A stretch of DNA of 64,000 nt from Candidatus Poseidoniales archaeon (lineage in GTDB: Archaea; Thermoplasmatota; Poseidoniia; MGIII; CG-Epi1): the NCBI GenBank assembly GCA_045567915.1, contig JBJLCA010000039.1:1879-65878 (forward strand), in the 5' to 3' direction. The notes beneath the pieces are model-generated. The model did not search any database, had not been told where the DNA came from, and saw only the letters and a program-made list of their open reading frames with translations. A program made the translations under genes and the position numbers. This document shows, piece by piece, positions 3,511 through 63,521 of this stretch (position 1 is the stretch's first letter; every line of letters starts with the position of its first letter).

Positions 3511-6500
3511 ATGGAACACTTCTACCAAAATATGAAATCCCTATTTGTCTTATTACTTTTTGTCACATCAATCGTGGCAAATCACGTAGACATAGAGGCA
3601 AAGCATTCAGGTGAAACTGAGATTAAAATTGAATACATAGACTGTGGCCCTTCCTCATTTTCTGACAGTGTCAAAAGTTCTTTTTTAAAGAAGATTAATA
3701 GTAATTATTTGGATTCAGAATTATACAAGCTGACAGACTGGATTGTGTTAATTAATGATAATCATTGTCATCATGATTTAGATTTTTTATTTAACTTATC
3801 TAATCTGGAAGCATATCATTCAATAAGAATTATTGATGGGGGCTGGAGTATAAGCTTTCAGTCTGGAGACATTGCTTATTCCGTATTAGATAACTGGAGA
3901 AATACCGGAAAAGTTTGGGGTTTTTATCCAGAAATTAGCATAAGAAATGAATTGCGTTATGAGCCTAATGATCCATATTATGTTTCAGGAGATCAATGGT
4001 ATTTGAACAATTATGGTCAAAATGGCGGAAATTCGGGAATTGACATCAGTCCCCAAAGTGCTTGGGAAAACTATGACGGAGCAGGCATACGTATTGGAGT
4101 AGTTGATGACGGTATAGATTATGATAATCCAGATTTGTCTGCTAATTTTGCGAGTTCTTTGAGTTATGATTATTGTGATGACGATGGTGATGTTATGCCT
4201 TCAGATTCAGACAATGACGGTGAAATTGACTGGCATGGTACTGCGGTTGCTGGCATAGTCTCCGCAAAAGGTAACAATAGTATAGGGATTTCAGGCGTTT
4301 CCTATAATTCAGATTTGGTAGGGATAAGACTGGTTGCAGATTCTTGTAATTCATCATTTACCTTAGATGAATCTGAGGCATATGCGCTTAATCATAGATT
4401 AGATGTTGTAGACATTTATGCAAATAGTTGGGGTCCACCAGATGACGGTAATCTTTTAGGTGAAATAGGTCCTTTAGCATTGTCAGCCTTAGAGGAAGGA
4501 GTCTCTGAAGGTCGCGACGGGTTAGGTTCCATTTATGTTTGGGCTGCAGGCAACGGTCACCAAAATGGAGATAATTCTAATAAAGATGCTTATGCAAACA
4601 GTAGATATACTGTAGCTGTAGGAGCAATAAATTGGAAAGGCGAACGTACAGAGTATTCAGAATCAGGATCAAATTTAATGCTTGTAGCACCTTCACATAA
4701 CAATAGTGAATGGGTTGATCCAGCTATATTTTCAACAGATATTTCAGGATCTGATGGTCACACTAATACAAGTTATTTAGATGATATGGGAGGTACTTCA
4801 GCATCTACACCGATGGTTGCAGGAGTAATTGCATTAATGCTAGAAGCAAATCCTGATTTGACATGGCGTGACGTCCAACATATCCTAGTAAGAACATCTA
4901 AAATGGTAGACAGTTCTAATGAAGGTTGGTTTAAGACATATGAAGGACGCGATTATAATCACGCATATGGATATGGTCTAGTCGATGCTAGCAGCGCAGT
5001 TAACCTTGCTAGAAATTGGGAAAACGTAACTGGAGAAATGAATTTAACAGAAGTTACTGCTAATACAGGAAAAATCATGGTGAATGAAATTATAAGTGAT
5101 GCCAATGAGTTGGGAGTAACTTCGGAATTCTTTGTTAAGGAAAGCATAGATATAGAAACGATTGAGATAAAAGTCAATATTTCACATTCTTGGAGGGGAG
5201 ATTTGAATTTATTTTTAGAATCTCCTAATGGTATTGTATCTGAGTTAGTTCGAGAAAGTAATGATGGTAATGATAATTATCGAGATTGGACTTTTTCATC
5301 AGTAGTTCATTGGGATGAAAATTCGTTTGGACTTTGGAAATTAAAAGCTAATGATACTGTGTTTGGAGGCGATACAGGAGTTTGGGTTGACTGGAATATG
5401 ACTATTTACGGTCATCCTGCAGCTGATCGCGATTTTGACGGACTTACTGATTTTGCAGAATCTAAGCTTGGAACTAAACTCTCAGATCCAGACGATGATA
5501 ATGACGGTTTATTAGATGGTGAAGAATATTATGGATGGTTAGATTTGCAAGGTAATTTCCATTTGACCGATCTTAAAGATCAAGATTCCGACGATGATGG
5601 AGTTACGGATTGGTATGAAGGCCGCGAGGATAACTTAACACGTTCACTTACCGATCCAAATGATAATGATACCGATGATGATGGAATACTTGACGGCTGT
5701 GAGATATATGGTTTAGATGATTGTGATAATTATGTAACAGATCCGTTAGAAGTAGATACTGATGGGGATGGAATCAGTGATTATGATGAAATTTTCGCTA
5801 ATTTACTTGAGCCTTCAAGGCTTAGAAGTGATCCAACTAAAATTGATTCGGATAATGACGGAATGCCAGATCCTTACGAATTAGATAATGGCTTTGGTCC
5901 TAAAGTAACTGCCGATGGCTTTCAAGATTCAGATTGTGATGGAGTGCAGGTTCAGTTTCAAGGTCTTGATTGTATTTTATTGAATGAGAATTCAATAAGG
6001 TATACTAATTACCAAGAATATTTAATGGGTACTAATCCAAATGACCCAGATACAGATTTAGATGGCCTACCTGATGGTTGGGAATATTTTTCTGGATTAA
6101 ATCCTTTAGTTGATGATTCTCATCTTGATTTCGATAATGATACGATTTCGAATATTTATGAGTTTAACAATTATTTGGTAGAGTCTGATATTTTTTCAAA
6201 AATGAGTTCAGGGTTGCGAGCCTATTGGCAATTTGAGTCTTCGTTCCCAACTGACGCAATAGGTTCAGGTCCGAGTTCACATTTTGCCTCGATGGTTAAT
6301 GGTGCAACTAAAATTCCTGCAAAACTGGCTAATGGTGTATATTGCGATGGTTCATCATCTCATCTAACTATTGATTCAATTAAGAATACGAAATTTACAG
6401 AATATACGGTACAGACTTGGGTTAAGTTGACCAATTATACAAACTTTGGGACTATAGTTGGGACGGCTACAGATGGTAGAACATGGTTAGGCATAGACTC

Positions 6501-7626
6501 TGAAGGTTTCATTCAATTTAGAGTATTCGCAGGTAATACCCTTTATTCAACACCTCTAGAAAATGATACGAGAGCAGCACTTGATGTCTGGTATCATGTT
6601 GCAGCAACTTATAGTGAAACTGGTAATTCATTAAGACTTTATGTTAATGGTACATTGGCTACAAATGCCACGATATCATCCTCGGATTCAATAAAAACAG
6701 CAGGAAGTAAAAATTACATTTGTAGAGGCCAAAGTGGAGCTTATCTTAACGGAACGGTAGATCATATTGCTATATGGGAAAGGGCATTTACAGAAGACGA
6801 AATAAGGTATTTTTATGAAAGACCATTAGCAATAGATAATTATTTCAATTTAAGGGTAGATGATGGAATAAGATACACGAATGCTAATTCTACAGATACT
6901 GATGAAGATGGTTTATCAGATGGGGAAGAATTCTATTTCGGTTTAGATGGATATTTAACAGATCCTACTAATAATGACACCGATGGAGATGGGTTGAACG
7001 ATTATCAGGAATGGTACTTCTTTGGAACGGACCCTACAACAAATGACACAGACTCCGATAATTTCACGGATGACATTGATATTTTCCCGCTAGATTCAAC
7101 AGAATGGATTGATACTGATGGAGATGGAGTTGGAGATAATTCAGATTATTTCCCACTTGATTTTAATGAAAGCAAAGACTCAGATTTAGATGGGTTGGGA
7201 GACAAACTTGAAATATTGATGCAAACTAATCCGTTTTCAAATGATACAGACGGAGATGGCAGTATTGATTCAATAGATAAATTTCCTTTAAATGACACTG
7301 AGTACTTAGATTCGGACAACGATGGTTTTGGAGACAATATTGATAAGTGTCCTGAAAATCCTAATGGTTATTTAGATTCAGACGATGATGGTTATTGTGA
7401 TAATGTGGATGCATTTCCATTAAATCCAAATGAATATTTGGATTCTGATAGTGATGGTTACGGCGACAATTCAGACAAGTATCCTAACGATTCTTCAAAG
7501 TCTAGTGATCCTCTTCAGAAAGTCGATAAGAATGATCCATTAAGTGGGGGAACCTTAGATTTGGCTTTACCTTATATTGTACTAATAGGTACACTTTATT
7601 TTATTTTCAAATTTTTCAGAAAATAA
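3511..7626 (+). CDS. secreted subtilisin/kexin-like S8 serine protease with P-domain, thrombospondin type-3 Ca-binding repeats, LamG/ConA-like domain and C-terminal TM anchor
   Basis: Signal-like N-terminus (MKSLFVLLLFVTSIVA). S8 catalytic triad contexts are VVDDGID (Asp), DWHGTAVAGIV (His) and GTSASTPMVAGVIAL (Ser). P-domain pattern HSWRGDLNLFLESPNGIVSELV...WTFSSVVHWDENSFGLWKLKA. Many DxDxDGxxDxxE repeats. LamG-like WYHVAATYSETGNSLRLYVNG. C-terminal hydrophobic LALPYIVLIGTLYFIF then KFFRK. Confidence 0.8.
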   Translation: MEHFYQNMKSLFVLLLFVTSIVANHVDIEAKHSGETEIKIEYIDCGPSSFSDSVKSSFLKKINSNYLDSELYKLTDWIVLINDNHCHHDLDFLFNLSNLEAYHSIRIIDGGWSISFQSGDIAYSVLDNWRNTGKVWGFYPEISIRNELRYEPNDPYYVSGDQWYLNNYGQNGGNSGIDISPQSAWENYDGAGIRIGVVDDGIDYDNPDLSANFASSLSYDYCDDDGDVMPSDSDNDGEIDWHGTAVAGIVSAKGNNSIGISGVSYNSDLVGIRLVADSCNSSFTLDESEAYALNHRLDVVDIYANSWGPPDDGNLLGEIGPLALSALEEGVSEGRDGLGSIYVWAAGNGHQNGDNSNKDAYANSRYTVAVGAINWKGERTEYSESGSNLMLVAPSHNNSEWVDPAIFSTDISGSDGHTNTSYLDDMGGTSASTPMVAGVIALMLEANPDLTWRDVQHILVRTSKMVDSSNEGWFKTYEGRDYNHAYGYGLVDASSAVNLARNWENVTGEMNLTEVTANTGKIMVNEIISDANELGVTSEFFVKESIDIETIEIKVNISHSWRGDLNLFLESPNGIVSELVRESNDGNDNYRDWTFSSVVHWDENSFGLWKLKANDTVFGGDTGVWVDWNMTIYGHPAADRDFDGLTDFAESKLGTKLSDPDDDNDGLLDGEEYYGWLDLQGNFHLTDLKDQDSDDDGVTDWYEGREDNLTRSLTDPNDNDTDDDGILDGCEIYGLDDCDNYVTDPLEVDTDGDGISDYDEIFANLLEPSRLRSDPTKIDSDNDGMPDPYELDNGFGPKVTADGFQDSDCDGVQVQFQGLDCILLNENSIRYTNYQEYLMGTNPNDPDTDLDGLPDGWEYFSGLNPLVDDSHLDFDNDTISNIYEFNNYLVESDIFSKMSSGLRAYWQFESSFPTDAIGSGPSSHFASMVNGATKIPAKLANGVYCDGSSSHLTIDSIKNTKFTEYTVQTWVKLTNYTNFGTIVGTATDGRTWLGIDSEGFIQFRVFAGNTLYSTPLENDTRAALDVWYHVAATYSETGNSLRLYVNGTLATNATISSSDSIKTAGSKNYICRGQSGAYLNGTVDHIAIWERAFTEDEIRYFYERPLAIDNYFNLRVDDGIRYTNANSTDTDEDGLSDGEEFYFGLDGYLTDPTNNDTDGDGLNDYQEWYFFGTDPTTNDTDSDNFTDDIDIFPLDSTEWIDTDGDGVGDNSDYFPLDFNESKDSDLDGLGDKLEILMQTNPFSNDTDGDGSIDSIDKFPLNDTEYLDSDNDGFGDNIDKCPENPNGYLDSDDDGYCDNVDAFPLNPNEYLDSDSDGYGDNSDKYPNDSSKSSDPLQKVDKNDPLSGGTLDLALPYIVLIGTLYFIFKFFRK

Positions 7627-13963: not shown

Positions 13964-15373
13964 ATGTCAAATAAAAGTATGTCAAAAATGGATATGCGAA
14001 GTGCAATTGTAGCTTTTTCAGTTGTAGCTATGTTAGTAGTATCATTTGGAGTTAGTAATGTAGATGCAGCAGCATCTCCAGTTTCTTTGACTTCAGATAT
14101 CTCTTCAGCAGATATAATGAAAGGTGACTATGTCATAGCAACGATAACAGTTAGCAGTAGCGATAATACTTATCGTAAGATGGAAGTTAAACTCACTGCA
14201 AATTTCCCTAGTGGAATTTCATGGGGTACTATGTTTTTAGATACTGACGAAAATCCTATTTCTGGCGACATGGTTTCCTTGGGTAAACAAGATTCAACAA
14301 CTGTCAAGTTAGCAATTTTCTGTGATGGAGTTTGCGAAGCTGGAGATACTAACACAGTTCAAGTTTATGGTCAAACAGATCCACGTTGGTATGATGGTGG
14401 TGCAGACGGTGATAATTGTGGAAGTACAGACTGCGAAACAGATACAAGTCCCGCATCTAGTTCATCAAATGTTACAAATACACTTTCAATTTCTTTGACT
14501 GCAAGAACTGGTGGATCACACACAGTGGTCTGTGACGCAGCTTCAAGTGAAGGTACTAATCAAATGTTCCATGGTTCGACCTATCAATGGGGATATGATT
14601 TAACTAACACAGGCTGGAACACCGATACTTACACATTTGCGATTTCAGTAAATACGAAAGCTGGAGCTACTGTATCCGATTGGACAGCAAATGCAGGTCT
14701 TAGCACCAAAGAATTGACAGGTCAGAGCGATACTTCAAGTAGCGCAGTTCATGCAGCAGAAGCTAGTATGTCTCTCAAAATTTCAGATACTGCTAGACCT
14801 GGCGTTTATACAATTGGCCTTCTGGTTACAGGTACAAATTCAGGTAATGTTGAAGGTTGTACTTTTGATGTAGTTGTTCCTGAACCTGATCTAGAAGTTT
14901 TGGATACAGACATATCTTTTAGTCACTCTAGTGCATGGATTAATTCTAGGGGCGATTCTCAGAGAGTTACCATTTACGCCAAGATAAGAAATAACGGCGG
15001 GACTATGGATTCAGAGGGTGTACCAGTCACAGACGTAGACGTTATTTTCCTTGTAGATGGATCACAATTAGGTTCAGTGCAGACTATTAGCAGTTTAGAT
15101 TATCAAGAAGAAGTTACACTTCAAGCTTTCTGGAATCCAGGTAGAGCTCATGACAGTAATGAAGTAGGTATACCAATCAAAGTATCTGTGGATCCAAGTG
15201 TTAGCGTTCAAGAAAGTGACGCAGATAATAATATTGGTTCAACACATTTCAAAGTAGTAAAGACTAAAGCAAGCAATCCTTCATTTTACATGAGTTTCTT
15301 GTCACTTGTTGGTGCAGTTGGTGCAGCAGTATTGATGTCAACTTATTATAGAAATAAAGATTTAGAAGAATAA
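13964..15373 (+). CDS. secreted surface protein with CARDB-like domain and C-terminal TM anchor
   Basis: Signal peptide (AIVAFSVVAMLVVSFGVSNVDAAA). S/T-rich with many N-x-S/T sequons. CARDB-like segment PDLEVLDTDISFS...TIYAKIRNNGG. C-terminal hydrophobic anchor LSLVGAVGAAVLM then YYRNKDLEE. Confidence 0.5.
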   Translation: MSNKSMSKMDMRSAIVAFSVVAMLVVSFGVSNVDAAASPVSLTSDISSADIMKGDYVIATITVSSSDNTYRKMEVKLTANFPSGISWGTMFLDTDENPISGDMVSLGKQDSTTVKLAIFCDGVCEAGDTNTVQVYGQTDPRWYDGGADGDNCGSTDCETDTSPASSSSNVTNTLSISLTARTGGSHTVVCDAASSEGTNQMFHGSTYQWGYDLTNTGWNTDTYTFAISVNTKAGATVSDWTANAGLSTKELTGQSDTSSSAVHAAEASMSLKISDTARPGVYTIGLLVTGTNSGNVEGCTFDVVVPEPDLEVLDTDISFSHSSAWINSRGDSQRVTIYAKIRNNGGTMDSEGVPVTDVDVIFLVDGSQLGSVQTISSLDYQEEVTLQAFWNPGRAHDSNEVGIPIKVSVDPSVSVQESDADNNIGSTHFKVVKTKASNPSFYMSFLSLVGAVGAAVLMSTYYRNKDLEE

Positions 15374-29148: not shown

Positions 29149-30045
29149 ATGGGGTTGTTAGGCCGTCAATTTAATTTAGAGCGAGAATCAGAAGATTCGT
29201 TGCTCCTTGCGTTTTCAACTTTAACGTTTGCAACCTCTTTATTTGCAGGATACCAAGAAAGCGGTATTGGTAGGCTTATCTCTCTTCCTTTGTTTGGAAT
29301 TGAGTTTCACTTAATTTCTACACCACTTTGGATTATTTCAGGAATACTATGTCTACTTTGCTTGCAACAATTGTTCCACAAAATCTGGACACATGGTGTT
29401 TGGTTGATAGGAATATATTGGTTGACTGCATTCGGAACTACTTTGTTATTTGTAATGTTTGATCAAGGATATGTTTGGTTTGTAGCAAGTTTAATTCTTT
29501 TACTATTAGCAATGTTCATAATGTATTGGATGGTTCTAGAGATATATGCATTAAGGCATAATATAATTAGAGAAGTGCCAGAAGCAGTTTCATTAAGTTT
29601 ATCAGATTGGTTATTATCAGTTCCTTCGTTTTTCTTATCCACCTTTATAAGTTACTATTATTACAGTAAACTTTACCTTCAAGAAGATGGATGGTTTACA
29701 TTTGGCTTTGCTTCAGAAGGATATCTTCTATTTCAGTTTGTAATGTTCTTTTCAGGCATGTATATTTTGTATATTCCACAGAGCTTGCTTGGTGATTATC
29801 TAGAATACAGTGATCTGGATATAAATACAAGTTTTAATGTAGATAGAGAGAAAGTAGAGAAGAGGTTATTAGATTATACTAAAAGTGTGGACGAGGGTAA
29901 GATTCAAGCAACTCTTGTTGATTTGTATAAAATGGCTGAAGGCGATGGAGAGACTTGGTCACAGTTGGGAGAATTCTATCCAGAGTGGAGCGTTGAAGAA
30001 GTTAAACTTTTCATTACCATGCTTGAAGAGTTAACCGAAAAGTGA
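29149..30045 (+). CDS. hypothetical polytopic membrane protein with C-terminal soluble acidic domain
   Basis: About six hydrophobic helices, then a ~80-aa charged C-terminal domain. No recognisable motif. Confidence 0.4.
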   Translation: MGLLGRQFNLERESEDSLLLAFSTLTFATSLFAGYQESGIGRLISLPLFGIEFHLISTPLWIISGILCLLCLQQLFHKIWTHGVWLIGIYWLTAFGTTLLFVMFDQGYVWFVASLILLLLAMFIMYWMVLEIYALRHNIIREVPEAVSLSLSDWLLSVPSFFLSTFISYYYYSKLYLQEDGWFTFGFASEGYLLFQFVMFFSGMYILYIPQSLLGDYLEYSDLDINTSFNVDREKVEKRLLDYTKSVDEGKIQATLVDLYKMAEGDGETWSQLGEFYPEWSVEEVKLFITMLEELTEK

Positions 30046-30155: not shown

Positions 30156-30368
30156 ATGAGTGACATGAATAAACCCGAAATGACGGCCCAAGTACTAGTT
30201 GCTGTAGGAGCAGTATTTTTGTTAATATCTGCATATGTTATGGGAGTATATATTCCAAACCAAAAAGAGTTAGATGATGACTTCGAAAGTAGAACTTCTT
30301 TTGACGGAGATATGACTCTATTCGATGCAACTAAATCAGCTACTCTTTCAAGGAGATTTCAATGCTGA
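30156..30368 (+). CDS. signal-anchor fragment, probably the displaced N-terminus of the following large protein (frameshift)
   Basis: MSDMNKPEMTAQVLVAVGAVFLLISAYVMGV is an N-terminal TM/signal anchor. This ORF overlaps the next ORF, which sits in the +1 frame. Confidence 0.35.
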   Translation: MSDMNKPEMTAQVLVAVGAVFLLISAYVMGVYIPNQKELDDDFESRTSFDGDMTLFDATKSATLSRRFQC

Positions 30369-32670
30369 AAATGCTTTGAATTCTTATGCAGCTGCAGATG
30401 GAACTAATGCTGAAATTGTAGCTAAAGCAGATCCCTCAAAAAGTGATGATGAAAAAACATATTATAATTTCAATGCTTCAGCTTTTACATCAAAAGAGAT
30501 GATTGAAGAAAATAGAATCTTAACATTTACAGATTATAACAATTACGTAGACAGAACAACTTGGGAAACTAAAGATGCAGATGATCCAGAAGATACTTTT
30601 GGATATTCACTTTGGAATCCTAATGAGTTACCTGAGAAGAAGAATACTCAATATCCTAATCCTTTCGTCTCAAGCCACACCAATAACTACATTTATGTAA
30701 GTGAAGAAAAAGTAGGCGGAATTGATTGCTACAAATACACTGCAGACGAAACATTTGAATATTCTAGTGACAGCGTATTAGCATTAAAAGCTAATTTTGA
30801 TGGCTTCCTTCCAGCAGGCGTTGAAGGAACTTCTTATGGAGAAATGCAATACAAGGAAGTAATTTGGGTATCTACTGAAACAGGTCAAGTTGCAGACAGA
30901 GAACTAGATATTGTAGTTAATTTCATTCCAGATCCTAGACTAGCAGTTCTTTTCCAGGCAACAGAATCTCTTGATTCAGTTATCATATATGAAGGTACTC
31001 TAGATGGCGCTAACATCACTGCAGACAGGAGAACTTTTTCATCAGGTTCAATTTTCACAGGGACAGATAATACAACTGGAGCAGAGAGAACATACATGAA
31101 TGCAACAGGTACATTATTAATATCCGGAGAAACAGAACCACGTGTAAATTCAACATTCTTAATTGATACTCACACACAGCAAGCTCAAGTTCAAGCACCA
31201 GATGGCACTTACATTAGTGCAGGTTCGACTTTCTTTAGTATTGGATCAGTTTGTGAGACCTCAACAGTCGATAATTTTACAACATATAATTATCCGAATT
31301 TGTTCTTAACTACACATGTTAATACCTACGAATGTGTTGAAACAACGGCAATTCCAGGATTTATCATTCCGTCAGCCAATGTTGTAGGAAATACATCTGT
31401 ATACCACTACAGATCTGTTGAGACTGATGTTTCCTTTGGTAACCTTGACCAAGACGGTGATGGTGTAGATGATACACCAAATTTACCTGTATTTGACCCG
31501 GTAAATGGATTCTGTATGAATCCTGCAGTTTGTGCAGATAGGCAATGGTCCAGTTTGATTGCTTATGCCTTAACACAAACATCACTTGGTGATCAGGCAC
31601 TTCAAATTCCAATTCGTTCAGACTCTAACATGACTTTACCGCAATTAGGTACGGTAGAGATGGTAATGTCTGGAGATGCATTACAAGGTAAAAATTTCCA
31701 CCCAATAATTCAATCTAGTTTTGTTGAAATTAATGATTATGCAGCAAATCTCGGAGTAACTAATGAAGACGGCTCACCATTAACTTATGATGATATGCCA
31801 TTTGTTTTAGATACTGCACATCCTTCGTTAGCGCTTGGTGAAGTCGCAGTTCCAGGAAATATGGATGCAATGCTTGCAGGTCAGGCTCAACTAGGTTCTG
31901 AATTCCACCCAACTGTTTTTGCAGGAATCGCAGGTAAAGTAGGGGCAGTGGGAATTAATTTAACTACAGCTCAAGCAATGCCATGGATGATTGCTGGAGA
32001 TATTGATGTAGGTGAGGATGAGAATGTTACCAATGTGATGACTATGCCTTGGAATGCCTATCCCGTTCTTGAAGCTGCAGATTTACCTGTACTTGAAAAT
32101 CAAACACTTCCACTTTTCATGGATTACGAAGAGAATGTAATGCTTGATCCTGTTACAGCGACAGTTTTAGATCAGGACTTCAACATTATAGTATCGATTC
32201 ATTTCCCATGGGGAACTGAAACAATTGTCCAAGCAATTAATGTAGCTTACACAGATAATCAAACCTGGTCCAGTTCAGCTTCGAGATGGACTGCTGAATT
32301 TGGATACACTTTCATTCCAGGAAGTCCTGTTAGAGCAGATAATGCTAACTTCACAATCATGACTCTAAAAGGTGGTTATTCAGATGCAGAAGTAGCAGAT
32401 GCTAAGAAAACTATTGAAGATACTAGCTCAGCATTAAGTTCAGCTAGAACAATTCCAATGGTGCTTATTGGTGTGGCTTTGGTTAGTTTGATGGGTGGTT
32501 TCTATGTATACTACCAAAATAACCAAGGTGAAGGCATGACTTCAGGAATGGATGATAGTTCTTCTGAAGAATCAGCACCAAGCATGGCAGTAACTGAAGA
32601 GGATTCTGAGGAAGAAGCTGAAGATTCTGGCGATGATTCTGAAGAAGAATCAGGTGACTCCGACGAATAG
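30325..32670 (+). CDS. large extracellular protein with C-terminal TM and acidic cytoplasmic tail; lacks its own signal peptide
   Basis: 781-aa ORF rich in N-x-S/T sequons. C-terminal TM (IPMVLIGVALVSLMGGFYVYY) then an E/D/S-rich tail. The upstream in-frame region is closed by a TGA at 30313. Confidence 0.55.
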   Translation: MQLNQLLFQGDFNAENALNSYAAADGTNAEIVAKADPSKSDDEKTYYNFNASAFTSKEMIEENRILTFTDYNNYVDRTTWETKDADDPEDTFGYSLWNPNELPEKKNTQYPNPFVSSHTNNYIYVSEEKVGGIDCYKYTADETFEYSSDSVLALKANFDGFLPAGVEGTSYGEMQYKEVIWVSTETGQVADRELDIVVNFIPDPRLAVLFQATESLDSVIIYEGTLDGANITADRRTFSSGSIFTGTDNTTGAERTYMNATGTLLISGETEPRVNSTFLIDTHTQQAQVQAPDGTYISAGSTFFSIGSVCETSTVDNFTTYNYPNLFLTTHVNTYECVETTAIPGFIIPSANVVGNTSVYHYRSVETDVSFGNLDQDGDGVDDTPNLPVFDPVNGFCMNPAVCADRQWSSLIAYALTQTSLGDQALQIPIRSDSNMTLPQLGTVEMVMSGDALQGKNFHPIIQSSFVEINDYAANLGVTNEDGSPLTYDDMPFVLDTAHPSLALGEVAVPGNMDAMLAGQAQLGSEFHPTVFAGIAGKVGAVGINLTTAQAMPWMIAGDIDVGEDENVTNVMTMPWNAYPVLEAADLPVLENQTLPLFMDYEENVMLDPVTATVLDQDFNIIVSIHFPWGTETIVQAINVAYTDNQTWSSSASRWTAEFGYTFIPGSPVRADNANFTIMTLKGGYSDAEVADAKKTIEDTSSALSSARTIPMVLIGVALVSLMGGFYVYYQNNQGEGMTSGMDDSSSEESAPSMAVTEEDSEEEAEDSGDDSEEESGDSDE

Positions 32671-58339: not shown

Positions 58340-60721
58340 TTACTCTTTATTTCGGATGCGATTTCCAACGATTAGCATAACAGATGCAATTGGCATAAGA
58401 AGTGTTGAAAACTCAGGTATTGCTGTTGCAGTAGTAACATCATCAGCACCATTTCCTCCATTAGGATTGTTCACTGTAATCCATTGATTCCCGAAAGCAT
58501 CAGCTCCTACATCCGTTGAAATTGCAGAAAATAAGTCACCTGAAACATAAGTAAAACCAAAATCGGCCTTGTCACATGCTATTTCGACACCACTAAATCC
58601 AACCTGGCCCCCGTCGTTAACTCTAACGTGTGATGATCCAGCAAAATTACTAGGCGTCCATGCAGTGTCTACAGAGCTCCATTCTGTCACATACCCCCAG
58701 TTAGCAGAGCCAACTCTTTTTGTGTGACATACAGCTTCATATGTCTGCCCAGTGTTACTAACATCGTCTATTAAAACACCAAAAGTAGCAGTTGATAAAT
58801 CTGCGTTAGCTTCTGTTCCAATTTGGAAAAATAAGTGGTCAGAATCTACGGCCCATTTTACTGTCAAAATTTCTAAATCTGAATCGACTCCATCATCTCC
58901 GTCATTTACTAAAGTGTTCCAGGTGGACGGCCAAGTGAATGAACTTTTAGCCCCATCTTCACCTTCAGTAGGCAGGGTAACTTTGTTGTAAATTTCAGCT
59001 TCAACTTCATCTACTTTATTACTCCATGATTTTATGTAAATGTAATAATTACCAGTAGCTCCGAATATTTCAATTTCCTTGTCATTGTTTGCAGATTCTG
59101 TATCTATTCCTTCGTCCCAAGCTGGAGTTTCTAAGAAGGGAAGCCAAGACTTCATCACACTTGAATCAATAATGCCATAATTTCCTACAATTTCTATCAT
59201 TTTTTCAGCACCAATTCCACCAACAATAAAACCAGTTTCAGCGTTATAGTCGGTATCTATCATGACAAAAATGTGGTCTTTATTTGACAATATTGGTTTA
59301 TTAAATTTGATTTCTTCAAGTCCGCCTTCCAATGTAACGTCAAATCCGCCTTCATTTCCTTTACTCTGGGCTGAATTTGATGTAAATGAGGTTCCATTTA
59401 GTATATTTCCTTCAGTGTTGATGTAATAGAATGTTTCGTCAGTTTTATCAGTAAAATTAGCAAACCTAAGTATGTCTATGTTATCTTCAATATTATTGTC
59501 GTTAGAATCTGCTTTATACTGGTCTACCGAGTTCCAGTCATTGAATTCACCATCAATAGTAATTCCATCTAAATCACCTTTACGGTAAGAATTTGAAACA
59601 TCTCTTCTAGACTTTACGTTTTCATTGTAATCGTACTCATTTCTAGATAAATCAATAACATTGGTTTTATCCATATTTCCTGATGAATCTGAAGCCGTAA
59701 TTAGATATCTCAATCCTTCGCCGGCATTAATTCCGACATCGAAATTTGCTATTTGAAGTTCAAGGGCAGTTGATATTCCCTTGGCGCTTGTTGAATTTGC
59801 TTCAATATTTGTTAAGCTAAAGAATCCATTCCAATCGCTATTGTCTCTGGAATCATCAAAGCTGTACAGCATTGCAGACGAAATAGTACCTGTACTCTCA
59901 CCATAGATTTCTACCATGTGATCTGCACCCAGTCCAGGGTAGAAATATCCACTATTTTGGTTATTGTCGCTGTCAATAAGAATTCTAACTGTAGTTCCAT
60001 CCGAAGATGTGAACATAGGTTCTTTAGTTTTCACCAAAAATGAGGTGTATACATTATCAATTGTAATTCCAGTTTCTATTATGTCAATGTTACCATTAAT
60101 TGAATCATCAGTTCCATCAAGTACAGTTTCGGTACCTGCCCAATCTTCAAAGCTGCCATCAATACTAACAGTTCCCTTTGATTCACCATCTTCCAGCATG
60201 TAATAAATACAACCGCCGCCGATTAGTAATGATAAAAATATAGCAACAGCAGAAGTTCTTGCAATATTACTTGCTCCCTCTAGTTCTATGTGAGAGTATC
60301 CTCCTAAGCCTCCCTTACTCTGTAACCCACTTCCATTAATTAATCCATTACCGTTAGTTAATCCGTTACCATTAGTTAATCCGTTACCGTTAGTTAATCC
60401 ATTACCATTAGTTAGTCCGTTACCGTTAGTTAATCCATTACCATTGGTTAATCCATTACCATTGGTTAATCCGTTTCCGTTGGTTAATCCATTACCGTTA
60501 GTTAGTCCGTTACCGTTAGTTAGTCCGTTACCGTTAGTTAACCCATTACCATTGGTTAATCCGTTTCCGTTGGTTAATCCATTACCGTTAGTTAATCCAT
60601 TACCGTTAGTTAATCCGTTTCCGTTAGTTAGTCCGTTACCGTTAGTTAATCCGTTACCGTTTGTCAATCCTTTACCATGCTTCAGATTTTCGTCTTTATT
60701 TACGATTTTCTTGTCGGACAT
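58340..60721 (-). CDS. large surface protein: N-terminal (GLTNGN)n hexapeptide repeat, TM/signal-anchor, ~600-aa S/T/N/D-rich ectodomain, C-terminal PEF-CTERM sorting signal
   Basis: ATG at 60721. Residues 18-~135 are GLTNGN repeats. Hydrophobic IARTSAVAIFLSLLIGGGCIYYML follows. Ectodomain has many N-x-S/T sequons. C-terminus ...TATAIPEFSTLLMPIASVMLIVGNRIRNKE has PEF, a TM and a basic tail. Confidence 0.6.
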   Translation of the reverse strand: MSDKKIVNKDENLKHGKGLTNGNGLTNGNGLTNGNGLTNGNGLTNGNGLTNGNGLTNGNGLTNGNGLTNGNGLTNGNGLTNGNGLTNGNGLTNGNGLTNGNGLTNGNGLTNGNGLTNGNGLTNGNGLINGSGLQSKGGLGGYSHIELEGASNIARTSAVAIFLSLLIGGGCIYYMLEDGESKGTVSIDGSFEDWAGTETVLDGTDDSINGNIDIIETGITIDNVYTSFLVKTKEPMFTSSDGTTVRILIDSDNNQNSGYFYPGLGADHMVEIYGESTGTISSAMLYSFDDSRDNSDWNGFFSLTNIEANSTSAKGISTALELQIANFDVGINAGEGLRYLITASDSSGNMDKTNVIDLSRNEYDYNENVKSRRDVSNSYRKGDLDGITIDGEFNDWNSVDQYKADSNDNNIEDNIDILRFANFTDKTDETFYYINTEGNILNGTSFTSNSAQSKGNEGGFDVTLEGGLEEIKFNKPILSNKDHIFVMIDTDYNAETGFIVGGIGAEKMIEIVGNYGIIDSSVMKSWLPFLETPAWDEGIDTESANNDKEIEIFGATGNYYIYIKSWSNKVDEVEAEIYNKVTLPTEGEDGAKSSFTWPSTWNTLVNDGDDGVDSDLEILTVKWAVDSDHLFFQIGTEANADLSTATFGVLIDDVSNTGQTYEAVCHTKRVGSANWGYVTEWSSVDTAWTPSNFAGSSHVRVNDGGQVGFSGVEIACDKADFGFTYVSGDLFSAISTDVGADAFGNQWITVNNPNGGNGADDVTTATAIPEFSTLLMPIASVMLIVGNRIRNKE
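60333..60670. repeat. about 19 tandem copies of an 18-bp unit (coding-strand consensus ggtaacggattaactaac), in-frame within the CDS above
   Basis: Visible directly on the + strand as repeated gttagttaatccgttacc with synonymous variants (att/gtt, aat/agt/aac, ccg/cca). Confidence 0.85.
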
Positions 60722-60770
60722 GCTTTCCTTTCGTAGGTAGACCTTATTTAAAATTAACCTTTGTTTTATA

Positions 60771-60847
60771 TGGCGGGCACGGAGGGATTTGAACCCCCGA
60801 CCTGCTGCTTAGGAGGCAGCCGCCATTCCTGGCTAGGCCACGTGCCC
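60771..60847 (-). tRNA. tRNA-Arg (anticodon CCT)
   Basis: Reverse complement GGGCACGTGGCCTAGCCAGGAATGGCGGCTGCCTCCTAAGCAGCAGGTCGGGGGTTCAAATCCCTCCGTGCCCGCCA. Anticodon loop CTCCTAA. CCA encoded. Confidence 0.85.
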
Positions 60848-60853
60848 TAAAAG

Positions 60854-61237
60854 TTATGTTTTATTTGGATATTTTTCTTTTTTCATAGTCTCGTCAACTT
60901 TTTTCTCTTCATAAAATTTGCCGAGTGTAGGTGATTCCACTTGTTTCAATTTACCAATCATCTTAGAGCTTTCTAGCATTTGAGGTATAGGTCTATCCTT
61001 CAACATTTCTAAATGTTTAGGTTTTATTTCATTATCAATATAGTTATTTCTATCTATGTCAGGAAGATTAATTTTTTCTACTAAATTGCTAGGGAATTTA
61101 CCTAGCTCAAAGGCTTCAATATTTGTTAATACTTTTCCATCTTTGACTGATGTAATACTTTTTTCATCAGGTAAAGGGTCATTGTCTATGGCACTTTTTT
61201 TTATAAATTTATTCGCTTTATGTTTGTTAAATTCCAT
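60854..61237 (-). CDS. hypothetical Lys-rich protein
   Basis: 127-aa ORF with no recognisable motif. Lies between tRNA-Arg and meaB. Confidence 0.35.
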   Translation of the reverse strand: MEFNKHKANKFIKKSAIDNDPLPDEKSITSVKDGKVLTNIEAFELGKFPSNLVEKINLPDIDRNNYIDNEIKPKHLEMLKDRPIPQMLESSKMIGKLKQVESPTLGKFYEEKKVDETMKKEKYPNKT

Positions 61238-62617: not shown

Positions 62618-63232
62618 TTAACTTTTCTTACCTTTGACCCCTAATTCAGCACTTCTTTTTTTGGTCTTCTTAAATTCATTTTTTAAATCAGCTAATTTGT
62701 CCTTTACATCTTTGCTTTTTGAAGGTTGGTTTTCAGTTACAGCCATAATTGCCTTCGGAGAAACATTCTCTTTTTCAAAAGTTTCGCTTTCTTTAGCTAT
62801 AGCAATCATTTCTTTACTGTCATTTTCATCTTCCTGCTCCTCTCTATCCCATTCTTCTTCATTAATTTGAACCTCGCTTTTTAACTCTGTAGAATTTCTA
62901 ACACCAATAAAAAATGAACCCCAAATTAGTGCAGCTACTATTGCTAAAATTATGGGTTCAGCTATTCCAATTTTAAGAGATGGTCCTAAAGATAGTGATA
63001 AGATTAGATAGAGACTGAATACTAAACCGAGACTACACCCACCTCCCACAGTTATGATAAATGTTGAATGCCAATCTTTAGGTAATTCATTTGCTCCAGA
63101 TCTCCCAGCTAAAAATGGGATTATTATTAGTGAAAGAGGTACCCCTATGGGTAAAAAAAATAAAAATATTAATCCAAAGCCCATTGTTTTGACAGCAGAG
63201 TTTCGGGCTGAGTAGTAGTTTTCTAGAGTCAT
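62618..63232 (-). CDS. hypothetical membrane protein with acidic then K-rich C-terminal tail
   Basis: ~4 TM helices, then EEEWDREEQEDEND... and KKTKKRS. Start reassigned to the ATG at 63232 because the upstream part of the track ORF is tRNA-Phe read in a protein frame. Confidence 0.4.
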   Translation of the reverse strand: MTLENYYSARNSAVKTMGFGLIFLFFLPIGVPLSLIIIPFLAGRSGANELPKDWHSTFIITVGGGCSLGLVFSLYLILSLSLGPSLKIGIAEPIILAIVAALIWGSFFIGVRNSTELKSEVQINEEEWDREEQEDENDSKEMIAIAKESETFEKENVSPKAIMAVTENQPSKSKDVKDKLADLKNEFKKTKKRSAELGVKGKKS

Positions 63233-63246
63233 ATGGCGAATCAGGT

Positions 63247-63322
63247 TGGTGCCGCCGGCCGGGATCGAACCGGCGACCTCGGGATCTTCAGTCCCGCGCT
63301 CTCCCAACTGAGCTACAGCGGC
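63247..63322 (-). tRNA. tRNA-Phe (anticodon GAA)
   Basis: Reverse complement GCCGCTGTAGCTCAGTTGGGAGAGCGCGGGACTGAAGATCCCGAGGTCGCCGGTTCGATCCCGGCCGGCGGCACCA. Anticodon loop CTGAAGA. CCA encoded. Confidence 0.85.
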
Positions 63323-63521
63323 TGAGTGTTTCATTAAGAGCCCCCATAAATGCTTCACCGTAGTAGAATAAGCTTTTATTCACCCTCTTTACACTATACA
63401 TGTGGTGATAAGTTTTGCCTAAATTTACCGGAAAAGAATCTGCATTTGAAGGAAACTGCTATTTTTGTGAGAAAGTTCTAGTTGTTCCGACAGGGCCCGG
63501 TTGGAATTCCACTAGGATTAT

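Follow-up and report, generated by a model that had tools for sequence, protein, structure and literature searches.

Our analysis of a 64,000-nucleotide stretch of DNA from a Candidatus Poseidoniales archaeon (contig JBJLCA010000039.1; the window, by which we mean the whole stretch that was analyzed) leads us to propose that one of its genes encodes a surface protein that is inserted through an internal signal-anchor, ends in a tail derived from the PEF-CTERM sorting signal and would be processed by an archaeosortase encoded elsewhere, a reading to which we assign a probability of roughly 0.55. An array of GLTNGN hexapeptides, a transmembrane (TM) helix, two IDGxFxDW domains, a variable domain and the PEF tail follow one another along this protein, and this order is the standard layout of a large, unnamed Thermoplasmatota family. 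According to an excerpt of PMC6461757, the Poseidoniia (Marine Group II/III) are, among planktonic archaea, those of greatest abundance in the surface ocean and have no cultured representatives; because of the latter, how they build their envelope and display hydrolases and adhesins, which are thought to underlie their heterotrophy, is known only from sequence.

The family was delimited with a 607-position profile of the ectodomain, which HMMER ran over 1.84 billion cluster representatives, giving 1036 representatives at E ≤ 1e-3, of which 708 were at E ≤ 1e-10; 150 of the 1036 were listed, and the 145 further representatives among these 150 were examined for their tails. Homologues with 45 to 76% identity come from uncultured Poseidoniia, Marine Group II/III, Thalassarchaeaceae and Thermoplasmatota metagenome-assembled genomes (MAGs) and from marine metagenomes. 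In the window and 53 further loci (546 kb scanned, about 482 kb of it from relatives), every open reading frame (ORF) with clustered GxxNG motifs shows, in the same order, the array, the helix, a pair of IDGxFxDW domains spaced by about 200 residues and, if complete, the PEF tail. The architecture, which the initial annotation had called unusual, is thus the usual one in these loci. At least two GxxNG motifs precede the first helix in 29 of 61 full-length representatives, the others having zinc ribbons or a plain signal peptide, and the family as a whole is recognizable as a display scaffold with interchangeable distal domains.

The PEF-like tail and its proposed processing

The full C terminus, TAIPEFSTLLMPIASVMLIVGNRIRNKE, is made up of IPEF, the 15-residue hydrophobic segment STLLMPIASVMLIVG, NRIRNKE and the stop codon, and the sole NCBIfam match of the isolated tail is TIGR03024 (PEF-CTERM; 16.2 bits, E 0.009, model positions 1 to 15 of 25). 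With a profile of 73 non-Poseidoniia family tails, the window tail scores 22.9 bits (E 4.8e-7); the next best of 203 six-frame ORFs has an E of 0.56, and a regular-expression scan of the window likewise found no other PEF-type tail. PEF-x5-P, then a hydrophobic stretch and an R/K run, is the arrangement in 59 of these 73 tails, and 13 of them match TIGR03024 at E ≤ 1e-4, approximately its cut-off. One Thermoplasmata contig, that of the family member P0020, also encodes an unrelated NosD-like protein, and the tail of this protein reaches 28.2 bits with the same model, above the curated cut-off of 23 bits. Because the profile of distant tails finds the window tail and some such tails reach the TIGR03024 cut-off, we regard it as belonging by descent to the PEF-CTERM class, from which it has diverged, and the evidence supports the view that it is a lineage-specific, unusually sequence-constrained derivative of that signal, for which the curated TIGR03024 model is too narrow. 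PEF-like tails also end 86 of the 145 further family representatives examined among the matches listed.

The constraint on the tail is specific to its sequence. Across 16 proteins with both helices, the tail (PEF plus 19 residues) has a mean pairwise identity of 80%, versus 37% for the N-terminal TM helix (TM1), and the ectodomains of paralogues are about 30% identical to that of the window protein. This suggests that the C-terminal helix is recognized by a protein partner, which would explain its conservation better than a role as a passive anchor.

The initial annotation had reported no archaeosortase gene in the window, and this was borne out, as none of the window's multi-TM ORFs matched an archaeosortase/exosortase family; the neighborhoods of seven family members and of the window's CDC48 gene likewise contained no PF09721 gene. 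We weighed whether one window ORF (29149..30045, plus strand; 298 residues, with four to five predicted TM helices ahead of a soluble C-terminal part) might be a divergent sortase and set it aside, the ORF having no Pfam or NCBIfam match and nothing else that supports the assignment. A five-TM ORF adjoining P0070 and the 163-residue ORFs in loci L026 and L027 also had no family match, and the last two look like spurious frames. Absence from the sampled loci implies only that the enzyme, if present, is unlinked to its substrates, and artA of Haloferax is likewise not known to be linked to the genes of its own substrates. The literature that we searched did not link archaeosortases with Marine Group II or the Poseidoniia, and it placed PEF-CTERM only in the context of the Methanosarcinales or of anaerobic methane-oxidizing archaea (ANME).

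Several points weigh against an archaeosortase substrate. The 28 multi-TM ORFs in the 546 kb gave no archaeosortase/exosortase match, and we know of no organism in which ArtC processing of PEF-CTERM has been demonstrated experimentally. The initial annotation had assigned the C terminus to PEF-CTERM, and although the tripartite tail is real and homologous to that class, the profile search leaves it 16.2 versus 23 bits, below the cut-off, with only 15 of 25 model positions aligned, which formally speaks against the assignment. The full-length protein matched no CTERM model (NCBIfam, E ≤ 10), and eight close-homologue tails, at 11 to 19.7 bits, are all below the TIGR03024 threshold too. TIGR04296 (PEFG-CTERM; cut-off 25 bits) was not matched by the window tail, and the best paralogue tail, one with PEFG, reached 11.7 bits. 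Among all complete proteins recovered, the tight Poseidoniia tail occurs on one protein family only, and its conservation could be due in part to common descent and not to its being a modular signal; at least two paralogues are present per MAG (L003 and L012; L013 and L015), all of one superfamily. Finally, the window's envelope proteins at 3511..7626, 13964..15373 and 30325..32670 (all plus strand) have C-terminal anchors without PEF, and different modes of C-terminal anchoring therefore coexist in this genome. Of these proteins, the first resembles subtilases in a GVVDD stretch close to the N terminus, and the last has a long acidic tail following its helix. A search with the 44-residue tail in a collection of 5.8 billion proteins, whose word index is weak for short queries, returned four fragments only.

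Some of these points would fit a C-terminal segment that serves as a permanent TM anchor and owes its conservation to helix packing against TM1, paralogues or another membrane protein, making the protein a two-pass protein with a large external loop: the window and homologue tails do not reach the TIGR03024 cut-off, no archaeosortase was found in the sampled DNA, and the tail is confined to one family in the Poseidoniia. The small residues and the proline of the helix (MPIASV..LIVG) might also suit packing. We nevertheless consider a permanent anchor somewhat unlikely, as distant relatives vary the helix but keep PEF, the proline at +6 and the basic end, which is the pattern of a sorting signal, and as some family-related tails do pass TIGR03024. 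Moreover, a T/A-rich linker places PEF precisely where the membrane begins on its outer side, an arrangement shared with PGF-CTERM substrates (PMC6098224).

If the protein is instead an archaeosortase substrate, as we favor, the Sec system would insert it through the internal anchor, and the C-terminal helix would transiently hold its far end in the membrane. An archaeosortase encoded elsewhere, either ArtC-like or of a lineage-specific subfamily, would recognize PEF together with the conserved helix, cleave off the tail and join the new C terminus to a membrane lipid, in a manner analogous to ArtA and PGF-CTERM of Haloferax volcanii (PMC6098224 describes how archaeosortase substrates are defined and how ArtA works). 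The mature protein would then be tethered at both ends, by its N-terminal helix and by the C-terminal lipid, and the GLTNGN array would remain in the cytoplasm. It is from this analogy that we infer ArtC-like processing of the window protein. The proposal predicts that such archaea possess an archaeosortase with a narrow substrate family, and it draws attention to a diverged PEF-type tail; this tail escapes current annotation models, and the relatives are consequently labeled "hypothetical protein."

The GLTNGN array

We rate the array, which is predicted to be cytoplasmic, as more interesting than the tail; it is perfectly conserved, variable in number and fixed in position. The N-terminal hexapeptide array named in the initial annotation consists of 18 perfect GLTNGN units and two degenerate ones, and Tandem Repeats Finder describes it with a period of 18, 18.9 copies and 87% matches. 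Among the 18 perfect units, 28 nucleotides depart from the consensus, every one of them synonymously, although no more than 24% of the possible single-nucleotide changes would be synonymous. Five further arrays of 8 to 39 units each, from independent assemblies (L022, L023, L026, L039 and L044), encode GLTNGN in 123 of 123 units despite 170 nucleotide differences and differing consensus codons (for example, GGTCTTACGAACGGTAAC versus GGATTAACTAACGGTAAC). All 141 units of the six arrays combined (8, 18, 19, 21, 36 and 39 perfect units) have the same peptide, with about 200 synonymous nucleotide differences among them. Distant Thermoplasmata relatives have a looser motif (GLVNGRG, GRTNGLTNG or GITNGNG), placed before a basic patch and a membrane helix. 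We conclude that the array is translated and that strong purifying selection acts on it.

These data bear on the idea that the array lies outside the protein, the true start being near the helix, which would then be a cleavable signal peptide, and the array being an untranslated or slippage-prone DNA repeat. Gene callers often place the start after the array in relatives, several homologues (P0001, P0003, P0006 and P0029) are called from just before or inside the helix, and assemblies frequently break within the array. We reject this idea, which is strongly disfavored and in our estimate extremely improbable, because the unit differences are all synonymous in the ORF frame in six arrays and because the GxxNG peptide motif is kept in distant orders whose DNA has fully diverged. 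In addition, codons 2 to 174 include no further ATG, and the GxxNG arrays are in every case in frame with an upstream ATG, their last motif lying 19 to 32 residues before the helix. A tRNA-Arg gene and a TATA-like box lie directly 5' of the ATG. Since the tRNA gene ends at 60771, there is no room for an alternative upstream start, and the TATA-like TTTTAAATA would imply a leaderless or very-short-leader transcript. Short K/D-rich leaders similar to MSDKKIVNKDENLKHGK precede the arrays of L022, L023, L039 and L044, and the junction GGLGGYSHIELEG is kept as G.GGYS[HR][IV][EP]L in paralogues and orthologues; GGLGGYSHIELEGASNIAR is an example of a peptide from the leader or junction region.

Contigs end at their 5' side inside a GLTNGN array in loci L006, L007, L008, L011, L012, L013, L024, L027, L031, L037 and L042. 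The repeat breaks short-read assemblies, and short-read copy numbers, possibly including the 18 found here, may therefore be underestimates. Two loci (L049, 9551..16508; L050, 7856..14786) hold three tandem family members with GITNGN-type arrays, with scaffold gaps (runs of N) inside an array, and P0070 has its start called downstream of its own array. A search with the N-terminal module in the 5.8-billion-protein collection returned mostly contig-end fragments. A repeat that both breaks assemblies and misleads gene callers matters to anyone who annotates such genomes.

The perfect conservation of the peptide argues for a structural or partner-binding module. No library that we searched describes the array, and Pfam gave no hit at E ≤ 10. 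A single-sequence AlphaFold model of the N terminus was of low confidence (predicted local distance difference test [pLDDT], 57), and Foldseek found no fold match for it (best E 1.3); its regular three-residue bridge pattern is a weak hint that the array might form a solenoid-like rod. Our results lead us to speculate, in a proposal that we ourselves regard as unlikely, that (GLTNGN)n with 8 to 39 units is a new intracellular module, either a rod or a multivalent docking track, that would tie PEF-anchored surface proteins to a cytoplasmic partner. If this were true, the docking array would provide a transmembrane link from the surface coat to the cytoplasm in the Thermoplasmatota.

Cytoplasmic genes lie directly 5' of a family member in three non-Poseidoniia Thermoplasmata loci (L019, 4125..8593; L051, 2683..5135; L020, 8243..9900). 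They encode a KaiC/RecA-like ATPase (PF06745 plus DUF7125) together with a TPR protein, or a STAND-type NTPase. The KaiC-like ATPase and the TPR and STAND products may be candidate partners of the array; genes of these kinds were not seen adjoining the window gene.

Topology, ectodomain and gene context

The internal signal-anchor that the initial annotation had reported was also found here, as a single internal hydrophobic helix at about residues 153 to 177 by hydropathy and as a helix at residues 151 to 177 in the AlphaFold model. The C-terminal helix is followed by a basic end, and nearly all relatives have R/K ahead of the N-terminal helix; both helices thus have basic residues on their cytoplasmic side. 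Where relatives lack the array, a plain N-terminal signal peptide is found at the equivalent place. The N-terminal helix is thus predicted to be a signal-anchor with the N terminus inside. We place the ectodomain outside and the array in the cytoplasm because of the basic flanks, the acidic middle, the extracellular modules in paralogues and the signal peptides of the array-less relatives.

In one homologue (P0012; 437 residues) the array and signal-anchor are swapped for a lipobox-like signal (..MICMSFTGC..), and the N-terminal module is therefore exchangeable. An excerpt of PMC12462473 gives the archaeal lipobox motif as [LVI][ASTVI][GAS]C; the P0012 signal ends in SFTGC, and the F at its -3 position falls outside this motif. 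LIGGGC within TM1 of the window protein was considered as a lipobox and rejected, its G residues at -3 and -2 being outside the motif as well.

The ectodomain of about 585 residues is strongly acidic (98 D/E versus 32 K/R) and, as had been stated, rich in S, T, N and D, with D, G, S, T and N each at 8.7 to 10.5%. The "many sequons" of the initial annotation did not hold up: there are 3 N-x-S/T sequons, fewer than the 9.2 ± 2.6 obtained by shuffling that preserves composition (P 0.009 for a count this low), and NST (residue 309) and NFT (residue 422) are kept in homologues. No recognizable catalytic domain was found, in agreement with the initial annotation, as Pfam (E ≤ 10) and NCBIfam scans of the full protein gave nothing useful. 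AlphaFold, run with a 23-sequence alignment, predicts three beta-sandwich domains with two low-confidence inserts (mean pLDDT 78.5; predicted template-modeling score [pTM], 0.59).

Domains 1 and 2, both membrane proximal, are internal duplicates of each other, with 27% identity in BLASTP (E 8e-9). Each begins with IDGxFxDW and continues with IDxDxNxxTG[YF]...GA[DE]xxIE, and these elements include columns that are invariant in the family alignment. Paralogues have LamG, FG-GAP, BNR, PKD or subtilase domains in the place of domain 3 (precomputed Pfam PF13385, PF01839, PF13088 and PF00082). A profile search against PDB sequences gave 0 matches, and Foldseek with the ectodomain model against the PDB gave generic Ig-like or beta-sandwich matches only, among them the glucodextranase 1ug9 (probability 0.82, E 0.011).

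An acidic ectodomain of beta-sandwiches only, with no catalytic domain, two conserved sequons and a locus that is conserved and syntenic in a relative, would also suit a subunit of an S-layer-like lattice, in which the tail and the anchor merely tether a self-assembling coat and the array is a disordered spacer without a specific role. We find such a lattice very doubtful, however, as a spacer would not be expected to hold 141 of 141 units identical as peptide, and as several paralogues per genome with differing distal domains suit a display scaffold better.

The features of the gene are collected in the table below. An exact look-up of the window protein gave no identical entry. On a 1.37-Mb contig of a relative (76% identity) the genes for a B12-binding subunit, MeaB, a small ORF, the family gene, CDC48 and a pyrophosphatase are syntenic with those of the window. 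On that contig (L018, named "_pilon"), a stretch with no called gene separates the same flanking genes and might accommodate a tRNA gene and the array. Within 10001..14135 of L018 the orthologue ends early, at 428 residues, and CDC48 is in three genes; both are probably frameshift errors left uncorrected, not pseudogenes.

Between MeaB and the tRNA gene, the window has a K/E-rich ORF of 127 residues with no family match (60854..61237, minus strand), and L018 has a 121-residue ORF at the equivalent position. Further along, a listed 246-residue ORF (62618..63358, minus strand) overruns a tRNA-Phe gene (63247..63322, minus strand). Its first 40 or so residues (..AAVAQLGERGTEDPEVAGSIPAGGT..) are translated tRNA, and its true start is therefore downstream, probably at MTLENYY.

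Features of the surface-protein gene in the window (aa, amino acids; nt, nucleotides)
Feature	Position	Strand	Basis or remarks
Surface-protein ORF, 793 aa plus stop, ATG start	58340..60721	-	GxxNG-array / IDGxFxDW / PEF-tail family
tRNA-Arg(CCT) gene, 49 nt upstream of the ATG of the ORF	60771..60847	-	
Putative TATA-like box TTTTAAATA, 24-32 nt 5' of the ATG	60745..60753	-	recognized by eye
Leader MSDKKIVNKDENLKHGK, 17 aa, precedes the array	60671..60721	-	
Array of 18 perfect GLTNGN units, aa 18-125, predicted cytoplasmic	60347..60670	-	
Two degenerate units, GLINGS and GLQSKG, aa 126-137	60311..60346	-	
Conserved junction motif GGLGGYSHIELEG, array to helix	60275..60313	-	
Signal-anchor TM helix (TM1), aa 153-177, N terminus inside (predicted)	60191..60265	-	hydropathy and AlphaFold
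Ectodomain domain 1, aa ~184-362, beta-sandwich, IDGSFEDW start and IDSDNNxxSGY...GADHMVEIYG	59636..60172	-	AlphaFold, alignment columns
Ectodomain domain 2, aa ~386-585, IDGEFNDW...IDTDYNAETGF...GAEKMIEIVG, low-confidence insert	58967..59566	-	AlphaFold, BLASTP
Ectodomain domain 3, aa ~600-762, variable beta-sandwich	58436..58924	-	AlphaFold
PEF signature, aa 769-771, after the T/A-rich linker DDVTTATAI	58409..58417	-	
Hydrophobic segment STLLMPIASVMLIVG, aa 772-786, conserved Pro six residues after F	58364..58408	-	
Basic end NRIRNKE, aa 787-793, cytoplasmic (predicted)	58343..58363	-	

Comparison with known systems

The array resembles the Hexapep beta-helix (PF00132) in its strict six-residue period and in having one aliphatic residue per unit. 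The Hexapep consensus is [LIV]-[GAED]-x2-[STAV]-x, which GLTNGN does not fit, and the array has neither a Pfam match to this family at E ≤ 10 nor a confident beta-helix model.

Among sorting signals, PEFG-CTERM (TIGR04296) shares the PEF core with the window tail, but its model does not match that tail. PEF-CTERM itself (TIGR03024/IPR017474), the proposed substrate class of archaeosortase C in the Methanosarcinales and ANME-2, has the same tripartite organization of PEF, helix and basic end at the extreme C terminus. The window tail differs from it in that the helix is nearly invariant (LLMPIASV.LIVG) rather than merely hydrophobic, and in that the basic end is short and N rich (NRIRNKE) rather than an R/K run. 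The host also differs, being a member of the Poseidoniia, and the enzyme was not found in the window and related loci.

ArtA with PGF-CTERM, represented by the S-layer glycoprotein of Haloferax volcanii, is the only archaeosortase system with proven cleavage and lipid attachment (PMC6098224). Its substrate is built on the same plan as the window protein: a Thr-rich linker leads to a motif at the outer membrane face, and a helix and a basic end come next. The motif of the window protein is PEF and not PGF, and no ArtA-type model matches in the window. Halobacterial substrates, furthermore, carry ordinary Sec or Tat signal peptides, whereas the window protein has a long, predicted cytoplasmic repeat followed by a putative signal-anchor.

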